Part shown: piece by piece, positions 267 through 55,246 of the stretch
Layout of the letters: the number at the start of each line of letters is the position of its first letter
How positions within the stretch are numbered: the first letter of the stretch is position 1
Position numbers and translations under genes: made by a program
Notes under the pieces: generated by a model
The model's database searches: none
Told to the model about the DNA's origin: nothing
The model's input: only the letters and a program-made list of their open reading frames with translations
From: an uncultured bacterium
GTDB taxonomy: Bacteria; Hydrothermota; E44-bin80
Assembly (NCBI GenBank): GCA_964392665.1
Contig: CAYMQB010000003.1
Location: forward strand, 21,176 to 85,175
Length of the DNA: 64,000 bases
Direction: 5' to 3'

Positions 267-1379
267 TTAATTATGTTTTCTTATATCTATGTTGAATCGT
301 AATGCAATATCTTTTACGATTCTCTTAACATACCTTTGGATATCCCCTGCCACTTTTCTATAAGTATCGATGTTTTGGCCAATTGGATCAAGTATTTCAC
401 CATGTTTACCTGCGAATTCAGTGAGTAGAAAGGTCCTATCTTGTAAGTTTGGCTCCAGTTTTAGAATATGTCTTTTATGCAAATTCTCCATACATAGAAA
501 TAAGTCTGCATCTTTGAGGATTTTTTTAGTGATGCTTTTAGAGCGGTGATTTCGAATACTGTAGCCAAGTTCGGAGATTGCCAGGATTGCGTTTGGAGTT
601 GCAGGAAAGCCAGAATTTTGAATGGTTCCGCAGGAAGAAACAGAGACATTTTTCAAGCCTTTTTGTTTTATTAATGATTTGAGAATTCCTTCAGCCATTG
701 GGCTTCTGCAGCTGTTAGCTGTGCATACAAAAACGATGTTGTAGACGATTGAGCTGTGAAATCTGACTTTCGGTACGATGTATTTCTCGATTGTTTGGAT
801 ACTTAGAGCACCCTTTCTTCGTAATATTGGCGGATATCTGGAAATGTCAAGAACAGTCGAAGGCGTTCCTTCCGGAATATTGTCGTCGGTTAGTATTAGG
901 TCTACATCGAGTCCAATTTTTTTATGGGTTTCGGCAGGTATTCCACCGGAAACATTCACACTTGTTGTAGCTAAAGGCACGGAGCATTTCTTTATAAGTT
1001 TCTTCAAAAGTGGGTAATCGGGTACTCGAACGCTGATTGTGTTTTTCCTGCCCGTAAATTCGGGAAATGTCCCCGTTTTTGCCTTAAATATAAGAGTGAG
1101 AGGACCCGGGATAAGATGTTCGATAATTGTTTTTGATGATTTAGTTAGTTCTTTAACATAGTTTTTTATTTCGGATTTTTCGGAAAGGAACATCACGAGC
1201 GGCTTATCCCTTTTTCTCTGCTTAATCCTATAGATCTCTTTTATCGCAGCACTGTTGTTAATATCGCAACCAATCCCATAAACCGTGTCGGTTGGGAAAA
1301 TAATTATACCGCCTTTTCTCAATACACGAATTGCTTTCTTGATACTTGATTCATCTGCTTTCAGGATATTCGCTTTCAT
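267..1379 (-). CDS. L-threonylcarbamoyladenylate synthase (Sua5/YrdC/TsaC family) fused to a C-terminal low-molecular-weight protein tyrosine/arginine phosphatase domain
   Basis: N-terminal region GGIIIFPTDTVYGIGCD is a YrdC/Sua5-type motif. The C-terminal ~150 aa carry VFVCTANSCRSPMAEG, the C-X5-R P-loop of the LMW-PTP/ArsC-like family. It is a single uninterrupted 370-aa ORF. Confidence 0.75.
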   Translation of the reverse strand: MKANILKADESSIKKAIRVLRKGGIIIFPTDTVYGIGCDINNSAAIKEIYRIKQRKRDKPLVMFLSEKSEIKNYVKELTKSSKTIIEHLIPGPLTLIFKAKTGTFPEFTGRKNTISVRVPDYPLLKKLIKKCSVPLATTSVNVSGGIPAETHKKIGLDVDLILTDDNIPEGTPSTVLDISRYPPILRRKGALSIQTIEKYIVPKVRFHSSIVYNIVFVCTANSCRSPMAEGILKSLIKQKGLKNVSVSSCGTIQNSGFPATPNAILAISELGYSIRNHRSKSITKKILKDADLFLCMENLHKRHILKLEPNLQDRTFLLTEFAGKHGEILDPIGQNIDTYRKVAGDIQRYVKRIVKDIALRFNIDIRKHN

Positions 1380-1506
1380 ACTTTTTTATAGCATAATCGG
1401 AGTAAAAAAACAAGCATGAATTTCGCTAAAAGGAAATTGTCACGTATTGTGTCAGTTCAGTGCGTCGAAAGGTACAACTAGGGGTCTAATGCTTTACCTT
1501 TTTTAC

Positions 1507-1535
1507 TTGACAATAGAGTTAAGTTAATATAAAAT
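1507..1535 (+). promoter_or_regulatory. candidate sigma-70 promoter for dnaN (TTGACA-17-TAAAAT)
   Basis: TTGACA at 1507..1512, 17-nt spacer, TAAAAT at 1530..1535, in the AT-rich divergent intergenic region about 55 nt upstream of the dnaN SD/ATG. Confidence 0.35.
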
Positions 1536-1592
1536 GTTTTATATGTTAAGAAAAGAAATTAATATGATTGATTGGAATTTAAGGAGGAAAGA

Positions 1593-2690
1593 ATGTATTT
1601 TAAGGTGAATAAGGATGTTCTATTACAGAAGCTGCAATTGGTTGCGAGTATCCTTCCTCAAAGAGCGAGTTTACTGGTTTTGGGAAATATTAAAATAAAC
1701 GCAGAAAAAAAAGGCGTTAGCCTGAGTGCAACCGACCTGGACATCTCACTTGATAGTACAATGCAAGCTAATGTGGTTGAAGAGGGGGGTATTACCGTTC
1801 CTGGAAAAAGATTCCTTGAGACCGTTAGGGACCTACCTGCTTGTGATTTAGAGTTGAAAGTTATGGGTGATTTCGTTGAATTGAAATACTCGAAGGGTAT
1901 ATATAAAATGCCAGCAATTCCAAAAGAGGAATATCCTGAAATTCCTGAAATATCAGGTAAGAAATTTATTCCTATTCCATCTGGTCTTCTTAGAAATGCG
2001 GTACAGAAAACCTCGTTTGCTGCTTCGAAAGAACCTGGCAGAAGGGCGCTTTCCGGAATGCACTGGAATATAGAAAACAAAGAAGCCAATATGGTTGCTA
2101 CGGATGGTAGAAAACTTGCTTTCTACAGGTGTCCAATTGATAAGGATGTGAGTTTAAAAGTAAACATTCCCCCAAAAGCGTTAAAAACCCTTATAGGTTA
2201 TATCGACGATGATGAACAGGAAATCAATGTGAAATTCGATGACAAGAAGATAGGGTTCTATCTTAAAGATACGACTATCATTGCACGTCTTATAGAGGAG
2301 GTTTTCCCTGATTATAAACAGGTCATACCCAACAACAACAAGTTGATACTCAAGGCAAGCAGGTCAGAGATGATTAATGTCCTTAAAAGGGTTTCAATAT
2401 ACTCAGACAGCACAAGCCATCTTGTCAGTTTTGAAGTTGAACCGAAAAACCTGAAGGTTTATACGGAAACTGAGCTTGGTTCCGGTGAAGAAAATTTGAC
2501 CTGTGATTTTTCTGGCAAATCCGTTTCGGTCAATTTCAATGCTTCATATCTCTCTGAGATTTTGCGGAACCTTGATGATGACAATGTAGAATTCAGGATA
2601 GGAACATCTAAAACAGCTGTTATAGTAACACAGAAAAAGAAGGGTGACGAAGAGTTGACCTATCTTTTGATGCCAATAATTACATCCTAA
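1593..2690 (+). CDS. dnaN: DNA polymerase III beta sliding clamp
   Basis: 366 aa. The start is moved to ATG 1593 (MYFKVNKDVLLQKLQ), which is preceded by AAGGAGG at 1581..1587. Three-domain clamp-like sequence with the typical length. The ORF track's longer TTG start is judged less likely. Confidence 0.9.
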   Translation: MYFKVNKDVLLQKLQLVASILPQRASLLVLGNIKINAEKKGVSLSATDLDISLDSTMQANVVEEGGITVPGKRFLETVRDLPACDLELKVMGDFVELKYSKGIYKMPAIPKEEYPEIPEISGKKFIPIPSGLLRNAVQKTSFAASKEPGRRALSGMHWNIENKEANMVATDGRKLAFYRCPIDKDVSLKVNIPPKALKTLIGYIDDDEQEINVKFDDKKIGFYLKDTTIIARLIEEVFPDYKQVIPNNNKLILKASRSEMINVLKRVSIYSDSTSHLVSFEVEPKNLKVYTETELGSGEENLTCDFSGKSVSVNFNASYLSEILRNLDDDNVEFRIGTSKTAVIVTQKKKGDEELTYLLMPIITS

Positions 2691-3835: not shown

Positions 3836-4348
3836 TTGAGCGAATTGACGGATATATCGGATAAGGTGAATCTTAAAGTGATAGATTTCGAAGAAGAAAA
3901 AGAAACCGTAAAGAAATATAATATTAAGTTTCCTCCAGCAACTGTTTTGCAATCTGATAGCGATCTGGGTCTAAGATATTACGGTATACCGGGAGGGTAT
4001 GAATTCAGTACTATCATAAATTCTATTGGCATGATTGGGAAAAATGGTGTTGAGCTGTCAGAAGAAACGCACAGGAAACTATCCCTTGTAAAGAAAAAAG
4101 TTGAAATACTGGTTTTTGTGACACCTCCGTGTCCTCACTGTCCTAAAGCTGCTGTAAGTGCTTATAAATTCGCTTTCGCGAATGAAAACATTGAAACGAG
4201 TATAATAGAAGCAAATGAATTTCCTGATATATCGAGAGAATTTAGCGTAATGGCTGTTCCGAAGATAGTAATAAATAAGGGATTTTCCTTTGAAGGGGCA
4301 TATCCCGACGAGATATTTGCGGATAATCTAATTAAGGGGATTGGTTAA
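3836..4348 (+). CDS. thioredoxin-fold protein disulfide oxidoreductase (glutaredoxin-like, CPHC active site)
   Basis: VTPPCPHCPKA CxxC motif in a thioredoxin fold. The TTG start is from the ORF track. The open frame continues upstream to 3719 without any start codon, and an ATG at 3726 lies in a neighbouring frame (see findings). The true N-terminus is uncertain. Confidence 0.6.
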   Translation: MSELTDISDKVNLKVIDFEEEKETVKKYNIKFPPATVLQSDSDLGLRYYGIPGGYEFSTIINSIGMIGKNGVELSEETHRKLSLVKKKVEILVFVTPPCPHCPKAAVSAYKFAFANENIETSIIEANEFPDISREFSVMAVPKIVINKGFSFEGAYPDEIFADNLIKGIG

Positions 4349-4363: not shown

Positions 4364-5341
4364 ATGATGGACATACAATTTCCAAAGGACAATGCGGATT
4401 TAAAGGATAAAGATAAGGAATTTGATGTTATAATTTTGGGTGCAGGCCCCGCAGGTCTAACTTCCGCAATATACACTTCGAGATCACTACTAAAGACATT
4501 GATAATTGAAACGGGTGTTATTGGTGGAGAGGCGGCGTCGACGGAATTGATAGAAAATTATCCTGGATTTCCTGAAGGGGTATCTGGAATGGACCTTACC
4601 GATGGAATGAAAATGCAGTCCGAGAAATTTGGCGCAAAAATAATTATGACTTATACAAAGGAAGTGAATCTAAAAGGGAATAGGAAAGTTGTAAAGACAG
4701 ATGATGGTGTGTTTTCCGCAAAGGCAATAATAATTGCAACGGGTTCGTCACCCAGGAACTTGAACATACCGGGAGAAGAGGTGTTCAAGGGAAGAGGAGT
4801 TTCATACTGCGCTACATGCGATGCTCCGTTTTTCAAGGATAGAGACATAGGGGTTATTGGGGCTGGAAGTTCTGGGATTCAGGAAAGTTTATACCTTCTG
4901 AAATTCACGAAGTCGATAAAAATTGTAGAGTTTCTTCCCCATATGACTGCCGAGAAAATTCTGCAGGAGAGAATAAAGAAATATGAGAATGTGGAGTTTT
5001 TTCTAAACCATACACTGAAATCAATTAACGGGAAACAGATGGTTGAAAGCATTACAGTGGAGGATAGGAAAGTCGGGACGGACAGCGTCCTTCCGGTTTC
5101 AGGTGTATTTATTTATGTTGGGCTAAGACCTAATACGAAGATTTTTATGGGATCACTTAAACTTAATGAAAATGGGTTTATTATAGCAGATGAGAATTTG
5201 AGAACTTCTGAATCGGGTGTTTTTGCCGCAGGTGATGTAAGAGAGAAAACACTCAGACAGGTTGCAACCGCAGTTGGGGACGGAGCTGTTGCAGCCTTTT
5301 CAGCCAAAGAATATATCGAAGGCAAATCATCCACAGACTAA
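4364..5341 (+). CDS. trxB: thioredoxin-disulfide reductase
   Basis: FAD motif ILGAGPAGL, redox-active CATC (SYCATCDAPFF), and an NADPH Rossmann motif GAGSSG. 325 aa, the typical low-molecular-weight TrxR size. Confidence 0.9.
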   Translation: MMDIQFPKDNADLKDKDKEFDVIILGAGPAGLTSAIYTSRSLLKTLIIETGVIGGEAASTELIENYPGFPEGVSGMDLTDGMKMQSEKFGAKIIMTYTKEVNLKGNRKVVKTDDGVFSAKAIIIATGSSPRNLNIPGEEVFKGRGVSYCATCDAPFFKDRDIGVIGAGSSGIQESLYLLKFTKSIKIVEFLPHMTAEKILQERIKKYENVEFFLNHTLKSINGKQMVESITVEDRKVGTDSVLPVSGVFIYVGLRPNTKIFMGSLKLNENGFIIADENLRTSESGVFAAGDVREKTLRQVATAVGDGAVAAFSAKEYIEGKSSTD

Positions 5342-8444: not shown

Positions 8445-8473
8445 AGGGACGGAGGATGTAAACTTGTAAACTT
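8445..8473. repeat. left 29-bp terminal inverted repeat of the IS-like unit (contains tandem GTAAACTT x2)
   Basis: Exact reverse complement of 9451..9479. Followed by a T9 run at 8472..8480. Confidence 0.8.
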
Positions 8474-8482
8474 TTTTTTTGA

Positions 8483-9424
8483 TCAGATCTCTCCTTTTAT
8501 TGTTTCTAATAATTGTTTTGGTATGTCGTACTGTCGAGATCGTCGATATCTATGTGCAATAGAAGCATATCTAACACCAAGAAATGTTGATATTTCTTTA
8601 TAGGTTAATCCAGCTTCATCCTTTAAGAATTTTATTAGTATGTCTGCCTTTTTTGTAGTATTATAAGAACGGTTGCTTAAGAAATTCTCAAGATGTGAAA
8701 TATTGTGGTATTTCTTATATGTTTTCAATATAAACTTTGCTGACTTGAACGCAGATACCATATTTTCTTCTTTTTTCCTCATACGAGGATGTTTGTTTGT
8801 ATTTTTCTTTCTTCTATTAAATTTTTGCTCAATTACTTTTTTGAAAGAAGGATTACCAATGTAGTAACAGAATCTGTCTTTTTTGGGTTCAATCATAATT
8901 GCTTTACTTTCCATAATTGACTTGGCAAATTGTCTCTTATTACGCGACATTTTCTTCACCAAGGAAGCGTCTATGAAACTGCTATCCGAAGTGAAATAGC
9001 TATTAATGCTGGACCATTTATAATCGAAGGGATTATCAACAATTCCAGCGCTGTAAGGATTTACTAAAGTATATTCAATCACTCTATAGAGGTAAGTTTC
9101 GTTCTCAACGAGAATGGATTTGAATCTATCTTGGAAAAGATATCCTTTCCCTCCATTTTTTTTGCGAAAGAAATTTGCATAACTTCCGTTCAAAACTCTC
9201 ATAAAATCACTCATTCTTCCTGAAGTATTACATAGAACCAGATGGTAGTGATTTGACATAAGACAATGAGCAAAAATGTTTAAGTGGAAGACGGGGGTAT
9301 TCTGTTCCAATAAGTCTGTGAATTTCTGCCTGTCGCGATCATCAAGGAAAATATCAGCCTTATTTAGTCCACGACTCATTATGTGGTGATATGCTCCTCT
9401 ATATGTAAACCTTGCGGTTCTCAT
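8483..9424 (-). CDS. REP-associated tyrosine transposase (RAYT, IS200/IS605 Y1 HUH family) N-terminal domain fused to a C-terminal DnaA domain-IV-like helix-turn-helix
   Basis: HUH motif HCLMSNHYHLVL. RAYT-type catalytic region YLFQDRFKSILVENETYLYRVIEYTLVNPYSAGIV. The C-terminal LTYKEISTFLGVRYASIAHRYRRSRQ resembles the DnaA C-terminal HTH. 313 aa, about twice the size of a standard IS200 TnpA. Confidence 0.65.
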   Translation of the reverse strand: MRTARFTYRGAYHHIMSRGLNKADIFLDDRDRQKFTDLLEQNTPVFHLNIFAHCLMSNHYHLVLCNTSGRMSDFMRVLNGSYANFFRKKNGGKGYLFQDRFKSILVENETYLYRVIEYTLVNPYSAGIVDNPFDYKWSSINSYFTSDSSFIDASLVKKMSRNKRQFAKSIMESKAIMIEPKKDRFCYYIGNPSFKKVIEQKFNRRKKNTNKHPRMRKKEENMVSAFKSAKFILKTYKKYHNISHLENFLSNRSYNTTKKADILIKFLKDEAGLTYKEISTFLGVRYASIAHRYRRSRQYDIPKQLLETIKGEI

Positions 9425-9450
9425 TTTTTATTAGAGTTTCTTATTTGGCG

Positions 9451-9479
9451 AAGTTTACAAGTTTACATCCTCCGTCCCT
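9451..9479. repeat. right 29-bp terminal inverted repeat of the IS-like unit
   Basis: AAGTTTACAAGTTTACATCCTCCGTCCCT is the exact reverse complement of 8445..8473. Confidence 0.8.
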
Positions 9480-9491
9480 ATATGTTGAAGC

Positions 9492-10889
9492 CTATAGGTT
9501 GAAGTAGAGTTTGTATTCTGTCGGGTTTACGGTCTCTTCTACTTGTCTTATTTCCTCTCTCTTAACTTGGAGCCATTGGTCAATCAAAGTATCATTGAAT
9601 ACCTGTCCGTGTTTAAGAAATCCTCTGTCTTTATCCAGAGATTGAAGTGCTTCCTCCAGGGTTTCCGGGATTTTTTCCAGATTTTTGATTTTTTTACTGT
9701 AAAGATTGGTGTTCGAAGGTTTACCCGGATGCGTTTTATTTTTTATTCCATCCATCCCGGCAAGAAGTAATGAAGAGATAAGCAAATATGGATTTGCGGT
9801 TGCATCTGAGATTCTGAACTCAATGCGGGTATCAGAACTACTATTCTCATACCCCGGTATTCTTATCGCAGCGCTCCGGTTCGCAAGTGAATAGCCGAAG
9901 TAGATTGGTGCTTCATAACCAGGGATGAGTCTTCTAAATGAATTAGTGGAACCGCAGGCAAAACCTGTTATTGCTCTCCCATGTTTCATTATACCGCCGA
10001 TAAAATGCATTGCTATCATACTTAAGTTCTCTGTTCCTCCCCTGTCAAAAAAGAGCGATTTTTTATTTTTTTCGAGATAAAGATGTACATGCATTCCATT
10101 CCCTGAGGTGAAGTTTAGTGGTTTAGGTAGGAAGATTGCAACTTTTTCACGCCCGAAGCAAGTATTTCTTATTATGTATTTGGCTTTCAAAATGCTATCT
10201 GCGGTAGCGAGAAAGGGATTTGATAGAATTTCGATCTCTTGCTGCGATGGGCCTCCTGATTCATGGTGATGATAGTTGACGGGAACACCAGCATTCTCGA
10301 GGTTTGCTGAAATTTCGGATCTCAGTTCATAAAACCTGTCAAAAGGTTCTTCTATGTGATAACCATTACCTTTATCTATACCTGTCATAGAGTTGTTATC
10401 ACTGCTTAGGGTTTCAGCTGAAGTGGTTTTAAAATAGGAAGTATTTATACTTAAATCAAGTGTTACTTTATCGAAGATGTGGAATTCGAGTTCCGGTTTT
10501 GTTTGAAGATTGTCCGCTAGGCCACTGTTCTTGAGATATTTTGTTGCCTTTTTCGCTACAGCTCTTGGACATAGAACATGAGGTTTCTTTTTTTTGCATT
10601 CGAACACGTCGCAAATGAAGGCCAGAATTTTATTTCCTTTCACTGTGTCGACAAAAGAGGTTCTCAGGTCTGGGATTATCACTGCATCTGAGTTTTCTAC
10701 ATTGCCAAATCCCTTTAAACTTGAGGTGTCGATACCTTCGCCTTGGTCGAACGTTTTTTTACTGATTCTCTTTGCTGGAATACTCAGATGATGCCATCTT
10801 CCTTCGAGGTCAGAATATTTGAGTTCTACTTCTTCAATTTTATTATTCTTAATAAATCTGGCTACACTTTCGTAATTTTTTAACATCAA
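9492..10889 (-). CDS. glutamine synthetase family protein (divergent GS paralog)
   Basis: 465 aa. Carries the GS catalytic-domain motif KPLNFTSGNGMHVHLYL (NGSGMHxH-like). More divergent than the upstream glnA. Confidence 0.7.
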   Translation of the reverse strand: MMLKNYESVARFIKNNKIEEVELKYSDLEGRWHHLSIPAKRISKKTFDQGEGIDTSSLKGFGNVENSDAVIIPDLRTSFVDTVKGNKILAFICDVFECKKKKPHVLCPRAVAKKATKYLKNSGLADNLQTKPELEFHIFDKVTLDLSINTSYFKTTSAETLSSDNNSMTGIDKGNGYHIEEPFDRFYELRSEISANLENAGVPVNYHHHESGGPSQQEIEILSNPFLATADSILKAKYIIRNTCFGREKVAIFLPKPLNFTSGNGMHVHLYLEKNKKSLFFDRGGTENLSMIAMHFIGGIMKHGRAITGFACGSTNSFRRLIPGYEAPIYFGYSLANRSAAIRIPGYENSSSDTRIEFRISDATANPYLLISSLLLAGMDGIKNKTHPGKPSNTNLYSKKIKNLEKIPETLEEALQSLDKDRGFLKHGQVFNDTLIDQWLQVKREEIRQVEETVNPTEYKLYFNL

Positions 10890-10894
10890 TCCTC

Positions 10895-12205
10895 CTACAG
10901 AATTGGTAGGTCATGTTTAAGTTCATATGATGTTATATGACTTCTGTATTGTTCCCAGATTCTTTTTTTGTTTTCTATCAAAGTATTAAATATGTGGTTT
11001 CCGAGTGCTTCCCTAACCATTTCACTTTTTTCTGTTTCTTTTATTGCTTCGTTAAGACTTCCAGGAAGAAGCTGGATTTTCTTGTTTTTTATTTCCTGTT
11101 TGTTCAAGGTATAAATATTCTCTTCATTTGGTGGGGGTAGTTCAAAAGCATTTTCTATGCCGGAAAGTCCTGCTCTAAGCATTACTGAGAATGCAAGATA
11201 TGGGTTTGCTGCAGGATCAGGGCTTCTGTATTCGACCCTAGTTGATTTCTCTTTACCCGGTTTATACTGCGGTATTCTTATTAGTGTGGAACGATTTCTG
11301 CATGCCCATGTTACATAAACGGGTGCTTCGAATCCCGGCACGATTCTCTTGTATGAATTAACCCATTGATTTGTAACCAAAGTTATTTCTTTTGAGAATC
11401 GAAGAAGACCTGAGATGAATCTCTTTGCATTATGCGAAAGGTAGTATGGCTCTTTGTCTGAAAAAAATTCATTTTTATCGTCACTAAAAAGTGATTGATG
11501 TGTATGCATTCCACTACCGTTTGCACCAAAAATCGGTTTTGGCATAAAACTAGCAAAATAACCATTTTGTTGCGCTATTTCCTTTACAATATACTTAAAT
11601 GAAATAACATTGTCAGCCATTCTCAATGCTTCATCGTATCGAAGGTCAATTTCGTGCTGGCTTGGTGCTACCTCATGGTGAGAATACTCAACGGGAATAC
11701 CCATTTCCTGCAATGCAATTATAGTTTTTCTTCGGAGTTCATCTCCAATATCTGGCGGAGTAAGGTCGAAGTATCCACCGCGGTCTAAGACTTCAGTTTT
11801 TTGTGAAGAAATGAAGTAGAAAAATTCCATCTCGGGACCTACATAAAAACTGAAACCCATGTCCTTTGCTTTCTCAAGGTTTCGCTTAAGGACATATCTT
11901 GGGTCGCCTTCATAAGGAGTTCCATCGGGATTCTGTATATCACAAAAAACCCTTGCAACCCTGTTTTTCCTATCTCCCCACGGAAAAATCTGCAGTGTCG
12001 TAAGGTCAGGTTTTGCCACCATATCACTTTCATGAATTCTTGTAAATCCCTGGATGGATGAACCGTCGAATCCCTTACCATTTGCTATTGCGTCTTTTAG
12101 TTCATCGATAGTAATGGAGAAGGATTTTGCATTTCCAACGATGTCTGTAAACCACATTTCAACGAATCTTACATTTTTATTTTTCAGTTTTTCAATTATT
12201 TCCAT
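10895..12205 (-). CDS. glnA: glutamine synthetase type I
   Basis: KPIFGANGSGMHTHQSLF ATP-binding motif, DGTPYEGDPR, and a VEYSHHEVAPSQHEID region. The start is set at ATG 12205 (MEIIEKLKNKNVRFVEMWFTD), preceded by AAGGA. The ORF-track N-terminal extension overlaps the rpoN 3' end. Confidence 0.85.
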   Translation of the reverse strand: MEIIEKLKNKNVRFVEMWFTDIVGNAKSFSITIDELKDAIANGKGFDGSSIQGFTRIHESDMVAKPDLTTLQIFPWGDRKNRVARVFCDIQNPDGTPYEGDPRYVLKRNLEKAKDMGFSFYVGPEMEFFYFISSQKTEVLDRGGYFDLTPPDIGDELRRKTIIALQEMGIPVEYSHHEVAPSQHEIDLRYDEALRMADNVISFKYIVKEIAQQNGYFASFMPKPIFGANGSGMHTHQSLFSDDKNEFFSDKEPYYLSHNAKRFISGLLRFSKEITLVTNQWVNSYKRIVPGFEAPVYVTWACRNRSTLIRIPQYKPGKEKSTRVEYRSPDPAANPYLAFSVMLRAGLSGIENAFELPPPNEENIYTLNKQEIKNKKIQLLPGSLNEAIKETEKSEMVREALGNHIFNTLIENKKRIWEQYRSHITSYELKHDLPIL

Positions 12206-12206
12206 C

Positions 12207-13598
12207 CTATCCTTCTTTTCTAAGTCTCGCTGGTAAAATCCCAAGTTGCTTTCTATACTTGGCGATGGTTCTTCTTGCAATTTTGATGCCATCTGTTTCA
12301 AGTTTTTCAGCGATTTCCTTATCCTTAAATGGATGTTTTTTTTCTTCGTTTTCCACCATCGTTCTTATTTTTTCCCTCACACTCCTTACTGAAATATCCC
12401 CATTGTTCGAAGTCGTAACGCTTCCACTAAAGAAAAATTTAAGCTCAAGAAGACCTCTCGATGTGTCTATGTATTTACCTTGTACAATTCTGCTAATGGT
12501 TGATTCATGCAGTCCTATTGCTTCCGATACCCTTTGCATTGTTAGAGGGACCAGTTTTGAGACGCCTTCCTCAAAAAATGCTTTTTGCTTTTCTACGATG
12601 TAATTAGTCACTTTGAGAATTGAATGTCTCCTTTCTTCAAGACCTTTCATCAGATTAACAGCAGAATTCAATCTCTGTTTAATAAATTCTTTCTCCTCCT
12701 TGAGAAGATTATTCTTTTGTTCAAGAATTTCTCTGTAGTACGAATTTATCCTAAGGCTTGGTAAAGTCGCCTCATTGATTATTACCTCGTAACCATCGTC
12801 TAAATCTTTCAGTATCAAGTCAGGTATGATGTATCGAATTCCTTTATCTCCAAATCCACGGAGTGGCTTTGGGTTAAGCGATGAGATTACAACGACCGCT
12901 TCCCTGATCTTAATTTCGGAGACTCCAATTTTTCTTTTTATCTTGTCGAATTTTTGTTCTCCAATTTCTTTCAAGAAATTTTGGACAATGTTGACTTCCA
13001 CGGAAGTTTCCGTATATCCATTCTGGTACAGTTGAATTGTCAAACACTCTTCGATATTTCGTGAAGCGATGCCAGATGGATCAAAGGTTTGCACCAATTT
13101 TAATGCTTCCAGGACATTTGATTCGGATGTATTCAAAGCTTCCATTATTTCTTGAACGTCGGTGTCAAGGAATCCACTTTCATCAAGAGAATCGATGATG
13201 TATTCTCCTATTGTACTTATCTCATCGGACATTACGTTAAGATGTAGCTGTCCAAGTAGATGGTCTCTAATTGAAGGTTTGACTACAGCAACTTTTTCAG
13301 GTATGGCGCTGTTTATATACTGCTTGGGTTTATATGAATAATCATAGTCTCCTTGAAAGAAATCTGTCCAATCAATTTCTTTGAATTCTTTTTTTGTTTC
13401 CTGTTCCTGTTGAGGTTGAGAGTTTTCTTCCTCCGTTGATTCCTGCTGTTCCTCAAGCAGGGGATTCATTTCGAGTTCATTTCTTACTGTCTGTTCGAGT
13501 TCCAAGTAAGGCATCTGGAGAAGTTTAAGAAGCTGATATAATTGTGGTGTTAAGACCTGTTTCAAGGCAACTTTCAGTTCAGGTCTAATTGCGTTCAT
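12207..13598 (-). CDS. rpoN: RNA polymerase sigma-54 factor
   Basis: C-terminal RpoN box ARRTIAKYRKQLGILPARLRK and HTH region ESTISRIVQGKYIDT. Acidic/Gln-rich N-terminal region. 463 aa. Confidence 0.9.
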   Translation of the reverse strand: MNAIRPELKVALKQVLTPQLYQLLKLLQMPYLELEQTVRNELEMNPLLEEQQESTEEENSQPQQEQETKKEFKEIDWTDFFQGDYDYSYKPKQYINSAIPEKVAVVKPSIRDHLLGQLHLNVMSDEISTIGEYIIDSLDESGFLDTDVQEIMEALNTSESNVLEALKLVQTFDPSGIASRNIEECLTIQLYQNGYTETSVEVNIVQNFLKEIGEQKFDKIKRKIGVSEIKIREAVVVISSLNPKPLRGFGDKGIRYIIPDLILKDLDDGYEVIINEATLPSLRINSYYREILEQKNNLLKEEKEFIKQRLNSAVNLMKGLEERRHSILKVTNYIVEKQKAFFEEGVSKLVPLTMQRVSEAIGLHESTISRIVQGKYIDTSRGLLELKFFFSGSVTTSNNGDISVRSVREKIRTMVENEEKKHPFKDKEIAEKLETDGIKIARRTIAKYRKQLGILPARLRKEG

Positions 13599-15862: not shown

Positions 15863-16866
15863 TCGGTAGGATGCTTTGTTATGAACTGCTCAATCGCTTT
15901 CGAGCACCTTCTTGTGTTTTCAAGTAAGTCTTCCTTTGTATTCCTTGTTTTTTTTAGTATTACTTCCTCTCCAACTTCTATCAGGTGCTTGTTGTTTTTT
16001 TGTCTGTAAATAGCGACAGGAAGAACAGGTGAAGAGGTTTTCATTGCGAGGTAGGCGGGTCCAACAGGTGTTCTTGCTTTTTTACCCATGAAGTTCACGG
16101 AAACACTGTTTTTTTTTGTACTCTGGTCCATCAGAATACCTACTGTTTCACCCAACAGAAGTCTTTTTAGCGCAACAACCGGCGCACGTTCCTTATCGAT
16201 GATTCGGACATTAAAATTTTCTCTAATACGGTTTATTACTGAATTTACCCTCTCATCGTAAACCTGTCTCGTTATGATATTTACAGAGTACCCTTTTTGA
16301 GAAAAGTATGCAGGTATGAGTTCCCAACAACCGAGATGTGCTGTAATTACAACTAAACCTTTACCTCTTTCCAGAAGTCTTTGTATATTTTTTCCATTTT
16401 TCAAATTCACAATTCTATCAAGCCCGGCGTTTTTATATCTTGACAGTCGGAGTGCATCGGCAAGGTTTTTCCCGATATTCCTGAAATTTTTTATAGCCAT
16501 ACTTCTTCTCCCGCCATTATCTTCGATGTTAGGATAAATCAGGGCAATATTTCCCTCCGCTACCTGTCTTGCCTGTCTCGCGAGTTTGAAAACAATTATG
16601 CCAAGGATATTTCCCAAAAAGAGTGCAAAACATCTTGGAAGAATCCTAAAAAAAGACACGATAAATTTTATGATGTACAGTATATACAAATGCCTAAGCT
16701 TTTTCATAGAACTAAAATAACACAGCATATTGGACTTGTCAAGATATTTAAGACTTGGTTTTTTCAGAACTTTATAGGGTTTATTTTGTCCTTTATTATG
16801 AAGGAGGTGAAAGAGATGAAAAAAGGAGTCGATGTTGCCGATCTGAAGAAAAGTGTGGAAGTACAT
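15832..16866 (-). CDS. lipid A biosynthesis (Kdo)2-lipid IVA acyltransferase, LpxL/HtrB family
   Basis: VVITAHLGCWELIPAYF is the HX4E motif of the LpxL/LpxM lysophospholipid acyltransferase family. N-terminal membrane anchor. The real start is probably the internal MKKLRHLYILY around 16707; the ORF-track start is an upstream extension. Confidence 0.75.
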   Translation of the reverse strand: MYFHTFLQIGNIDSFFHLFHLLHNKGQNKPYKVLKKPSLKYLDKSNMLCYFSSMKKLRHLYILYIIKFIVSFFRILPRCFALFLGNILGIIVFKLARQARQVAEGNIALIYPNIEDNGGRRSMAIKNFRNIGKNLADALRLSRYKNAGLDRIVNLKNGKNIQRLLERGKGLVVITAHLGCWELIPAYFSQKGYSVNIITRQVYDERVNSVINRIRENFNVRIIDKERAPVVALKRLLLGETVGILMDQSTKKNSVSVNFMGKKARTPVGPAYLAMKTSSPVLPVAIYRQKNNKHLIEVGEEVILKKTRNTKEDLLENTRRCSKAIEQFITKHPTEWVWFHKRWS

Positions 16867-18402: not shown

Positions 18403-18533
18403 GTCATTGCGAGTAAACATTCATTCTTGAGAGGATTATCGGAGCTTGTCCTGAGTATAAACGAAGGAAAGGAGGTGGGGGGGGGTGTGTAACCACTATG
18501 AGATTGCCACAGGACTTCGTCCTTCGCAATGAC
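18403..18533. repeat. MITE/REP-like element copy C (TIR GTCATTGCGAG / TTCGCAATGAC), containing a G9 homopolymer
   Basis: Shares its terminal inverted repeats and the 3' module (ATGAGATTGCCAC) with copy B at 55090..55246. G9 run at 18477..18485. Intergenic between the pilin gene and pilD. Confidence 0.6.
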
Positions 18534-37211: not shown

Positions 37212-37376
37212 GTCATTGCGAGGAGCGAAGCGACGTGGCAAAATCATCTTTAAGTAATGAAAATTGAAATAGTCAACAGCGAGATTGCTTCGCATTTGTG
37301 GAGCAAGCCCCGTGTAATAGGAAAGTTTTTGTGCATAATGGTATTACACAGGGCAAGAAGAAACGCTCGCAATGAC
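37212..37376. repeat. MITE/REP-like element copy A (TIR GTCATTGCGAG ... CTCGCAATGAC)
   Basis: Its reverse complement aligns nearly base-for-base over about 95 bp with copy B at 55090..55246, including CCCTGTGTAATACCATTATGCACAAAA. 11-bp terminal inverted repeats. Intergenic between the marR-like and phaR-like genes. Confidence 0.65.
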
Positions 37377-55089: not shown

Positions 55090-55246
55090 TGTCATTGCGA
55101 GTTTCTCTTCTTGCCCTGTGTAATACCATTATGCACAAAACATTTTTCTATTACACGGGGCTTGTTCCACAAATGCGAAGCAATCCCATATTCACTTTCT
55201 GTCAATATGAGATTGCCACGCCTGCCACAGACAGGCTCGCAATGAC
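55090..55246. repeat. MITE/REP-like element copy B (TIR GTCATTGCGAG ... CTCGCAATGAC)
   Basis: See copy A. Intergenic between mvhA copy 2 and the protease gene. The ORF-track ORF 55008..55697 partly translates this repeat (LALCNTIMHK also appears in the antisense ORF 37250..37927). Confidence 0.65.

Follow-up and report, generated by a model that had tools for sequence, protein, structure and literature searches.

The sequence analysed from this genome is a 64-kb window of contig CAYMQB010000003.1 from an uncultured bacterium, and the element considered here is a small unit near its beginning. An open reading frame (ORF) at 8483–9424 on the minus strand encodes 313 amino acids (aa), including an HYHLVL (HUH) motif and the block FQDRFKSILVENETYLYRVIEYTLVNP, and is framed by two inverted copies of the 29-mer AGGGACGGAGGATGTAAACTTGTAAACTT. 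RAYT-like genes enclosed between long terminal inverted repeats (TIRs), and not between repetitive extragenic palindromic sequences (REPs), have been named TIRYTs after their protein, and the whole units TIRtrons (Di Nocera, De Gregorio and Rocco, 2013, PMC3733652). According to a later survey, most TIRYTs correspond to subclass 2.1 of the TnpA-REP-like proteins, with a C-terminus resembling Bac_DnaA_C, HTH_23 or HTH_28 (Quentin et al., 2018, PMC6006769). The locus described here belongs to this known TIRYT/TIRtron class, subclass 2.1. Its parts are as follows.

8445–8473, plus strand: downstream (3') arm of the inverted repeat, composed as A-GGGACGGAG-GAT-GTAAACTT-GTAAACTT
8446–8454, plus strand: outer box GGGACGGAG of the 3' arm, a candidate cleavage or recognition site judging from its position
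8458–8473, plus strand: tandem 8-bp iterons GTAAACTT GTAAACTT of the 3' arm
8483–9424, minus strand: TIRYT gene, 313 aa, coordinates including the stop codon
8486–8743, minus strand: C-terminal six-helix DNA-binding domain with a predicted DnaA domain IV-like fold, aa 228–313
Within the C-terminal domain: putative recognition helix, about S288–R295, including H291
8753–8803, minus strand: basic, disordered linker, aa 208–224 (predicted local distance difference test, pLDDT, <50 at residues 208–224)
8810–9424, minus strand: N-terminal Y1/HUH nuclease domain, about aa 1–205
9071–9073, minus strand: catalytic Tyr118, followed by N122-P123 and W137-S138-S139
9242–9250, minus strand: HUH motif H59-Y60-H61, inside the Y1/HUH domain
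9451–9479, minus strand: upstream (5') arm, the identical 29-mer, ending 26 nt before the ATG
9451–9466, minus strand: two tandem 8-bp iterons of the 5' arm
9470–9478, minus strand: outer box GGGACGGAG of the 5' arm, conserved

An earlier note on this DNA had reported exact 29-bp inverted repeats with tandem repeats in each arm, and this was borne out: AGGGACGGAGGATGTAAACTTGTAAACTT occurs at exactly two sites in the window, 8445–8473 (+) and 9451–9479 (−), and each arm holds GTAAACTT twice. The 29-mer had no match in 100 shuffled sequences even when three mismatches were allowed, and at that tolerance the window likewise yielded only the two arms. The TIRYT gene sits in an array of same-strand genes separated by short gaps. 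We also confirmed the reported spacing of the unit, with 12 nt between the outer end of the upstream arm (9479) and the stop of a glnA-like gene (9492), and 18 nt between the outer end of the downstream arm (8445) and the TTG start (8426) of a tyrosine recombinase gene.

A single-copy gene inherited with its host lineage

Comparison with related lineages placed the unit in a conserved neighbourhood. Six loci, that of the window and those of five other lineages, share the order lptC-lptA-lptB-rpoN-(glnA)-TIRYT-(DUF2330)-xerC-NlpC/P60, followed by thioredoxin-system genes. Each of the five orthologous loci has its own inverted repeats, and in every one of the six the TIRYT gene points the same way as rpoN and xerC. 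Pairwise identities between the TIRYT proteins group like those of RpoN, XerC and NlpC, but the TIRYT diverges faster: between the window and the others identity is 47–59% for TIRYT, 65–69% for RpoN and 63–68% for XerC, and within the group formed by loci L004, L010, L048 and L050 the corresponding values are 64–73%, 80–87% and 76–85%. The lineage to which the TIRYT-bearing orthologous loci belong is a deep one of uncultured bacteria, with assemblies labelled WOR-3 or Cloacimonadota. Each homologous protein was found in one genomic context, even where dozens of contigs carry it. A scan of viral contigs gave zero matches to TIRYT homologues, and a tblastn search against plasmids and phages retrieved remote matches only (at most 34% identity), mostly on megaplasmids, and no close homologues.

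One further relative, a contig of a metagenome-assembled genome (MAG; locus L028), carries rpoN, a solo repeat, DUF2330 and xerC at this position and no TIRYT gene. Its RpoN is approximately 74% identical to those of L001 and the L004 group and 65% identical to that of the window. Because the 3' arm is kept and RpoN groups with TIRYT-bearing lineages, the more parsimonious explanation for L028 is secondary loss and not an empty target site; the earlier note had proposed to look for such a site in relatives. We conclude that the TIRYT gene is a single-copy gene inherited vertically with its host lineage, and not a recent insertion.

The earlier note had regarded the unit as wedged in between two chromosomal genes. 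An active, autonomous insertion sequence (IS) with TIRs, as a recent arrival in the gap separating glnA from the recombinase gene, would account for the perfect 29-bp arms, for the tight fit in the intergenic gap and for the absence of the gene from the L028 locus. Such an event is, however, very improbable and largely refuted, given that the unit occupies the same locus in five other lineages with a divergence parallel to that of RpoN and XerC, that each protein has a single genomic context, that L028 retains the 3' arm as expected after secondary loss, and that neither a second copy in the window nor close copies on plasmids, phages or viral contigs were detected. Of the two terms that had been offered for the gene, 'domesticated' is the more fitting and 'active' the less so. 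As a case that would refute the earlier reading, it had been envisaged that relatives might carry the gene as a conserved housekeeping gene without inverted repeats; half of this is seen, the gene being conserved like a resident, but so are its repeats.

Inverted repeats beside a tyrosine recombinase gene form the classic layout of an invertible switch, and in the window the recombinase gene is the immediate neighbour of the unit, so that the 1-kb segment could be imagined as being flipped by it. We consider this exceedingly unlikely. The recombinase beside the 3' arm passes the NCBIfam model of the housekeeping protein XerC (336.7 vs a cutoff of 335.15) and fails that of XerD (303.5 vs 329.6), which also corrects its previous designation as xerD; the orientation of the TIRYT gene is fixed in the six syntenic loci; four of the five other orthologous loci have a DUF2330 gene that separates the element from xerC; and distant homologues, which lie in unrelated contexts, have retained inverted repeats in the absence of a neighbouring recombinase. 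The last two observations make the adjacency to xerC a matter of lineage-specific synteny. Nothing indicates that the TIRYT is functionally tied to the recombinase or dnaN. The dnaN gene lies at 1572–2690 (+), approximately 5.8 kb from the unit, in agreement with the 6 kb given before.

Several features of the neighbouring genes were recorded alongside. The gene bordering the upstream arm is a type I glutamine synthetase gene (9492–10889), one of two tandem paralogues (9492–10889 and 10895–12301, both on the minus strand) directly downstream of rpoN, and among the syntenic relatives glnA is present once (L004, L010, L048, L050) or is missing (L001, L028). dnaN (window 267–2690 region) has no neighbouring dnaA, and the divergent gene upstream encodes a fusion of Sua5/YciO with a low-molecular-weight phosphatase. 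The GC-skew profile tracks gene orientation and is uninformative as to a replication origin at the locus.

The nuclease and its C-terminal domain

The HUH motif and RAYT-like catalytic block that the earlier note had seen in the ORF are supported by both profile and structure. Pfam Y1_Tnp covers residues 11–118 of the 313-aa protein (34.3 bits, cutoff 23). The AlphaFold model (mean pLDDT 90) shows an N-terminal domain, a disordered linker and a helical C-terminal domain, and the top PDB match of the N-terminal domain is E. coli TnpA-REP with a REP hairpin (4er8, TMt 0.72), followed by the TnpA structures of ISDra2, IS200 and IS608; a phmmer search of the PDB with the whole protein gave no match. 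In an alignment of 46 homologues reaching down to 25% identity, H59, H61, Y118, N122, P123 and W137 are invariant, which indicates that the catalytic apparatus is under purifying selection. S138 and S139 are at least 90% conserved among the same homologues, and the protein thus has the short serine motif of subclass 2.1, which lies by the catalytic tyrosine region. The TIRYT protein is a RAYT-like Y1 nuclease whose catalytic residues are intact.

For the C-terminal segment, the resemblance to DnaA domain IV proposed by the earlier note is supported by fold and by relatives that bear Bac_DnaA_C (PF08299), but not by a direct match to that profile. Modelled alone with AF2, the domain reached a pLDDT of 94, and the only full-length matches retrieved by Foldseek were structures of DnaA domain IV (8btg, 3pvp, 1j1v, 2hcb; TMq 0.67–0.75, prob 0.99–1.0, 85–90 columns), whereas structures of sigma region 4 reached a TMq of only about 0.4. 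Scans of the C-terminus with Pfam and NCBIfam profiles gave a sub-threshold match to Sigma70_r4_2 as their sole signal. PF08299 was detected in 14 of the 46 aligned homologues, HTH_23 in three and HTH_28 in two. The C-termini of PF08299-positive relatives match DnaA chains (E 3e-16), and hhalign aligned the subfamily of the window with these C-termini in register (E 5.5e-4, probability 30%). Fold and transitive homology, in place of a direct hidden Markov model (HMM) match, therefore support the C-terminal 86 aa as a predicted DnaA domain IV-like DNA-binding domain.

A single-sequence search with this domain against 1.8 billion representatives returned 19 matches and gave no useful estimate of family size. 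In two other proteins, P0088 (719 aa) and P0089 (740 aa), the C-terminal helix-turn-helix (HTH) matches seven and nine separate stretches, respectively; these proteins apparently consist of tandem HTH arrays.

Inverted repeats, iterons and solo copies

All 12 distinct homologue loci examined, whose proteins are 26–59% identical to that of the window, carry an inverted repeat of 22–31 bp just outside the ORF, starting with GGG. Their arms read as follows.

L001: AGGGACGGAGGCTGTAAACTTGTAAACTTTT
L004: TGGGGACGGAGTTTGTAAATTTGTAAAT
L048: GGGACGGAGTTTGTAAATTTGTAAATTTT
L050: AGGGACGGAGTTTGTAA(A/T)TTTGTAGATTT
L010: AGGGACGGAG(T/G)TTGCAAATTTGCAAATTTTC
L011: GGGTCGGTGCTTGACTTTTGACA
L016: GGGGACGGTGCTTGACATTTGACAT
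L045: GGGGACGGTGCTTTACAATATGACA
L047: GGGACGGTGCTTGACAC(C/T)GTGACATTA
L017: AAGGGGTCA(A/G)GTCTC(T/C)GTTTGAC(T/C)TAT
L052: GGGGTCAGGTCTACGTTTGAC...
L053: GGGTCCGCATCTTAAAAGTTAA

In the clade of the window and its nearest relatives (L001, L004, L048, L050, L010, L011, L016, L045, L047) an outer box is followed by a word of 7–8 bp given twice; L017, L052 and L053 keep the G-rich outer end, and tandem words were not resolved in them. The outer box GGGACGGAG is invariant across the six orthologous loci and takes the form GGG(G)ACGG(A/T)G in distant relatives. An outer motif GGGGWSAS has been described in many but not all TIRs (PMC3733652). Measured against it, AGGGACGG of the window fits at six of eight positions, L004 has GGGGACGG, and the box overall reads (A/G)GGGACGG(A/T)G; the outer motif of the PF08299-positive loci L017 and L052, GGGGTCAG, is an exact fit. 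As a separate observation, L016 has two left arms (3912–3938 and 4004–4023) for one right arm (5046–5073), the second left arm lying just within the called ORF start.

Change is concerted between the two arms and among all four iterons. At 97% of positions in the six orthologous loci the arms are complementary; of 30 positions, eight differ on both arms at once, no position has changed on a single arm, and three show isolated mismatches. None of 500 shuffled controls reached these covariation values, and sliding the register abolished the signal. As their tandem pair, the window and L001 have two copies of GTAAACTT, L004 and L048 two of GTAAATTT, and L010 two of GCAAATTT; in L010 the T-to-C change is present in four out of four iterons. 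Covariation of the tandem words within an arm is not needed for pairing between arms, and fits either recognition of each word by one domain or repeated copying from a master.

Complementary arms with double-sided changes, in an array of same-strand genes with very short intergenic gaps, could also reflect a role at the RNA level, in which the arms would pair in the transcript as a 29-bp duplex, for example as an RNase III stem that frees the TIRYT mRNA from a polycistronic RNA. The lack of any one-sided G-U-type change at the 30 positions, together with identical solo copies (described below) that have no partner within kilobases, argues against such a stem; moreover, the mismatches are not wobble pairs, and arm pairing does not require the tandem iterons to covary. 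We therefore hold an RNA stem to be highly improbable.

Within the 64-kb window, searches for degenerate copies of the 29-mer, of the 16-mer iteron pair and of the GGGACGGAGG box recovered the two arms only, and a second ('type B') TIR was sought there and not found. Folded as single-stranded DNA, the arms and their flanks formed no hairpins (minimum free energy −1 to −2.9 kcal/mol, z +0.2 to +2.2 vs shuffled sequences). Since they lack local secondary structure, the arms are not REP-type hairpins such as the earlier note had envisaged. Nor is there support for its proposal that the RAYT drives a four-copy family of miniature inverted-repeat transposable elements (MITEs) in the window. These MITE-like elements of 130–165 bp (18403–18533, 37212–37376 and 55091–55246, with a partial one at 16040) have inverted GTCATTGCGAG termini, which share nothing with the arms, and interiors that align poorly among themselves, and they do not flank the gene. 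It had further been suggested that the unit supplies the promoter of the recombinase gene; neither the downstream arm nor the 18-nt gap has a sigma-70-type consensus, and a scan for promoter and terminator consensus was empty both at the arms and between the element and xerC, with a total below the shuffle expectation.

The anatomy of the repeats can be set beside that of the protein. Through two chained alignments, H291 of the window protein aligns with H439 of E. coli DnaA. The residue equivalent to H439 is H where the iteron is GTAAAYTT, N with GCAAATTT (one lineage) and Q with TTGAC(A/T)T, and A or I with two further iteron variants. We regard this covariation of residue and iteron as a lead, consistent with recognition of the iterons by the DnaA-like domain.

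Further copies of the TIR, for which the earlier note had recommended a search, are missing from the window and present in relatives. We scanned 185,579 species-representative genomes for the repeat pattern, and metagenomes in addition. The MAG DAOVSH01 has a TIRtron of its own, with repeats and flanks of the same sequence as L001, and four solo copies on other contigs that are identical to its own TIR. In the metagenomes, 14 contigs (at least seven distinct sites) carry a solo window-type 26-mer, GGGACGGAGGATGTAAACTTG(T/C)AAAC. Solo copies have a sharp outer boundary at GGGAC; they lie between genes or overlap ORFs by no more than the final or initial codons, and by an informal tally of mechanical ORF calls, 11 of 13 distinct solo sites are co-oriented with the adjacent upstream gene. 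Copies within a genome are all identical, including positions 11–12, which vary between genomes.

Two side observations concern these copies. At L030 (6411–6473), GGGGACGGTGCTTGACTT... and ...AAGTTTACAAGTTTACAGCCTCCGTCCC stand tail to tail about 10 nt apart in a 63-bp unit that has the look of a mini-TIRtron lacking a gene, a hint that this genome may harbour another type of TIRYT. Tandem (G)TAACGA(G) heptamers occur just before many solo window-type repeats (L023 330–395, L033 2650–2706, L036 2195–2269, L038 5500–5569, L042 22–90, L043 1–38), several of which are then followed by a third iteron-like word, TATTTGCACA; heptamers, repeat and third word may together form a longer composite repeat.

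At five loci the 3' arm reaches into a neighbouring coding sequence: in L028 (1415–1440) and in the four DUF2330-bearing orthologous loci (for example, L004 5953–5983) it falls within the called start of the DUF2330 ORF, where it encodes K(I/V)(Y/C)K(F/I)(T/A)(S/N/T)SVP; in L028 and L004 the called N-terminus reads MK.K(I/V)YKFT(S/N)SVP.... This overlap would suit an exapted transcription factor, for which the arms would be operators serving autoregulation and the control of the downstream DUF2330 and xerC genes, and the solo copies a regulon, with no cleavage involved. The intergenic position of the solo copies by gene ends and starts, their prevailing co-orientation with genes, the packing of the TIRYT gene into a same-strand array with short gaps and the covariation of iteron type with a recognition-helix residue are likewise in keeping with it. 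However, the HUH motif, Tyr118 and the NP residues are invariant in homologues down to 25% identity, which would be unexpected if catalysis were dispensable; the identity of within-genome copies, variable positions included, favours copying or homogenisation over the independent drift of operators; and the arms show no promoter consensus. On balance, we think regulation without cleavage unlikely.

Proposed mechanism and comparison with known systems

Taken together, these findings make it probable that the locus is a TIRtron in which a single-copy, vertically inherited TIRYT gene is framed by inverted repeats that are presumed to be its substrate. Judging from the anatomy of the arms, the DnaA-like domain would bind the iterons in duplex form, with one domain on each 8-mer, and thereby place the Y1 domain on the neighbouring conserved box, where it would nick one strand at or beside GGGACGGAG (the GGGAC box). 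Nicking may then lead to copying or homogenisation of the repeat of about 30 bp across the genome, while the gene itself would no longer move. Such copying would parallel the handling of REPs and REPINs that has been proposed for RAYTs (PMC5581495).

A number of points weigh against this interpretation. Literature searches found no biochemical characterisation of any TIRYT, and as the arms have none of the hairpins needed by every characterised Y1 transposase, a cleavage mechanism is not simply transferable. With regard to the nuclease domain, the NCBIfam RAYT equivalog REP_Tyr_transpos (NF047646) covers residues 3–138 with 53.6 bits, under its cutoff of 80. With regard to the C-terminal domain, a Pfam scan of the window protein gave no match to PF08299 at E ≤ 0.1, an HMM of the subfamily C-termini searched against PDB sequences returned noise only and no DnaA chain, and the Foldseek E-values are weak (0.04–0.2) despite TM-scores of about 0.7. 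The correlation of residue and iteron comes from a handful of lineages and carries no phylogenetic correction. Part of the conservation of the arms may be due to coding constraint where the 3' arm overlaps the DUF2330 start. Finally, the 64-kb window holds the two arms and no solo copy, so that dispersal is seen in relatives only.

A more far-reaching proposal is that the TIRYT is no relic, but a host-integrated, iteron-guided nickase that acts on genome-wide sites of about 30 bp, namely the two arms and the solo copies, most of which stand just downstream of a gene and in its orientation. Protein and sites would co-evolve as one system, specificity would be set by a few recognition-helix residues, such as the equivalent of DnaA H439, and the chromosomal function might be, for instance, fork-linked processing or the control of DUF2330 and xerC. 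We put this forward as a speculation that is itself doubtful; if it were true, the TIRYT would be a naturally reprogrammable sequence-specific HUH enzyme. The TIRYT orthologues in any case offer a clean comparative series, with a fixed position, concerted box-plus-iteron repeats and a helix residue that tracks the iteron, and this series turns the target of the DnaA-like domain into a hypothesis that can be tested with defined mutants. To label units of this kind as recent insertions, or to link them with whichever MITEs are nearby, would be a mistake.

Among the known systems, the RAYT/TnpA-REP of E. coli (4er8) has the fold nearest to that of the N-terminal domain. RAYTs are also single-copy, vertically inherited domesticated transposases flanked by short repeats that they reputedly disperse (PMC5581495). 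However, RAYT repeats are GTAG-tagged palindromes of 20–40 bp read as single-stranded hairpins, whereas the arms of the window have neither hairpin nor GTAG, and the window protein has a predicted extra domain for double-stranded DNA and lies under the NCBIfam RAYT cutoff. A RAYT in the strict sense was therefore rejected, on the grounds that the arms are not GTAG-tagged REP hairpins and that the NF047646 cutoff was failed, although single-copy vertical inheritance does match. The TnpA proteins of the IS200/IS605 family (IS608, ISDra2) share the Y1/HUH fold and the Pfam family, but are of about 130–150 aa, multi-copy and associated with subterminal hairpins, a lack of TIRs and single-stranded circles, none of which applies here; an IS200/IS605 insertion sequence was rejected in view of the absence of hairpins, the one context per protein and the conserved locus.

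DnaA domain IV bound to the DnaA box (1j1v, 3pvp) resembles the six-helix fold predicted for the C-terminal 86 aa, with the HTH in register. Unlike DnaA, the window protein has no AAA+ module and no direct Pfam match, and the repeats have no TTATCCACA-type box. The HUH Rep initiators of geminiviruses, circoviruses and adeno-associated virus (AAV Rep) have tandem direct repeats that are bound as duplex beside a conserved nick site. Their layout is similar by analogy only, as they belong to other HUH families, and here we see no sign of a replication role, a hairpin or an origin.

The closest counterpart is the TIRYT/TIRtron class itself. As described in the two surveys, its members have a RAYT-like Y1 protein with HUH motif and catalytic tyrosine that exceeds RAYTs in length, a Bac_DnaA_C-related HTH at the C-terminus, and long non-REP TIRs with a G-rich outer motif; they are usually single copy, and their TIR families are dispersed in moderate abundance in some genomes (PMC3733652), all of which is also found here or in relatives. 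The TIR motif is stated to be unlike the DnaA box (PMC6006769). The present locus differs in its host lineage, labelled WOR-3 or Cloacimonadota, which lies outside those surveys. Relative to the passages of PMC3733652 and PMC6006769 consulted, our analysis adds the tandem iterons, the concerted arms, the deep conservation of the locus and the 3' arm that lies over the start of a neighbouring ORF, and it contributes in addition the remnant solo repeat that one relative has at this locus and a candidate residue for specificity.

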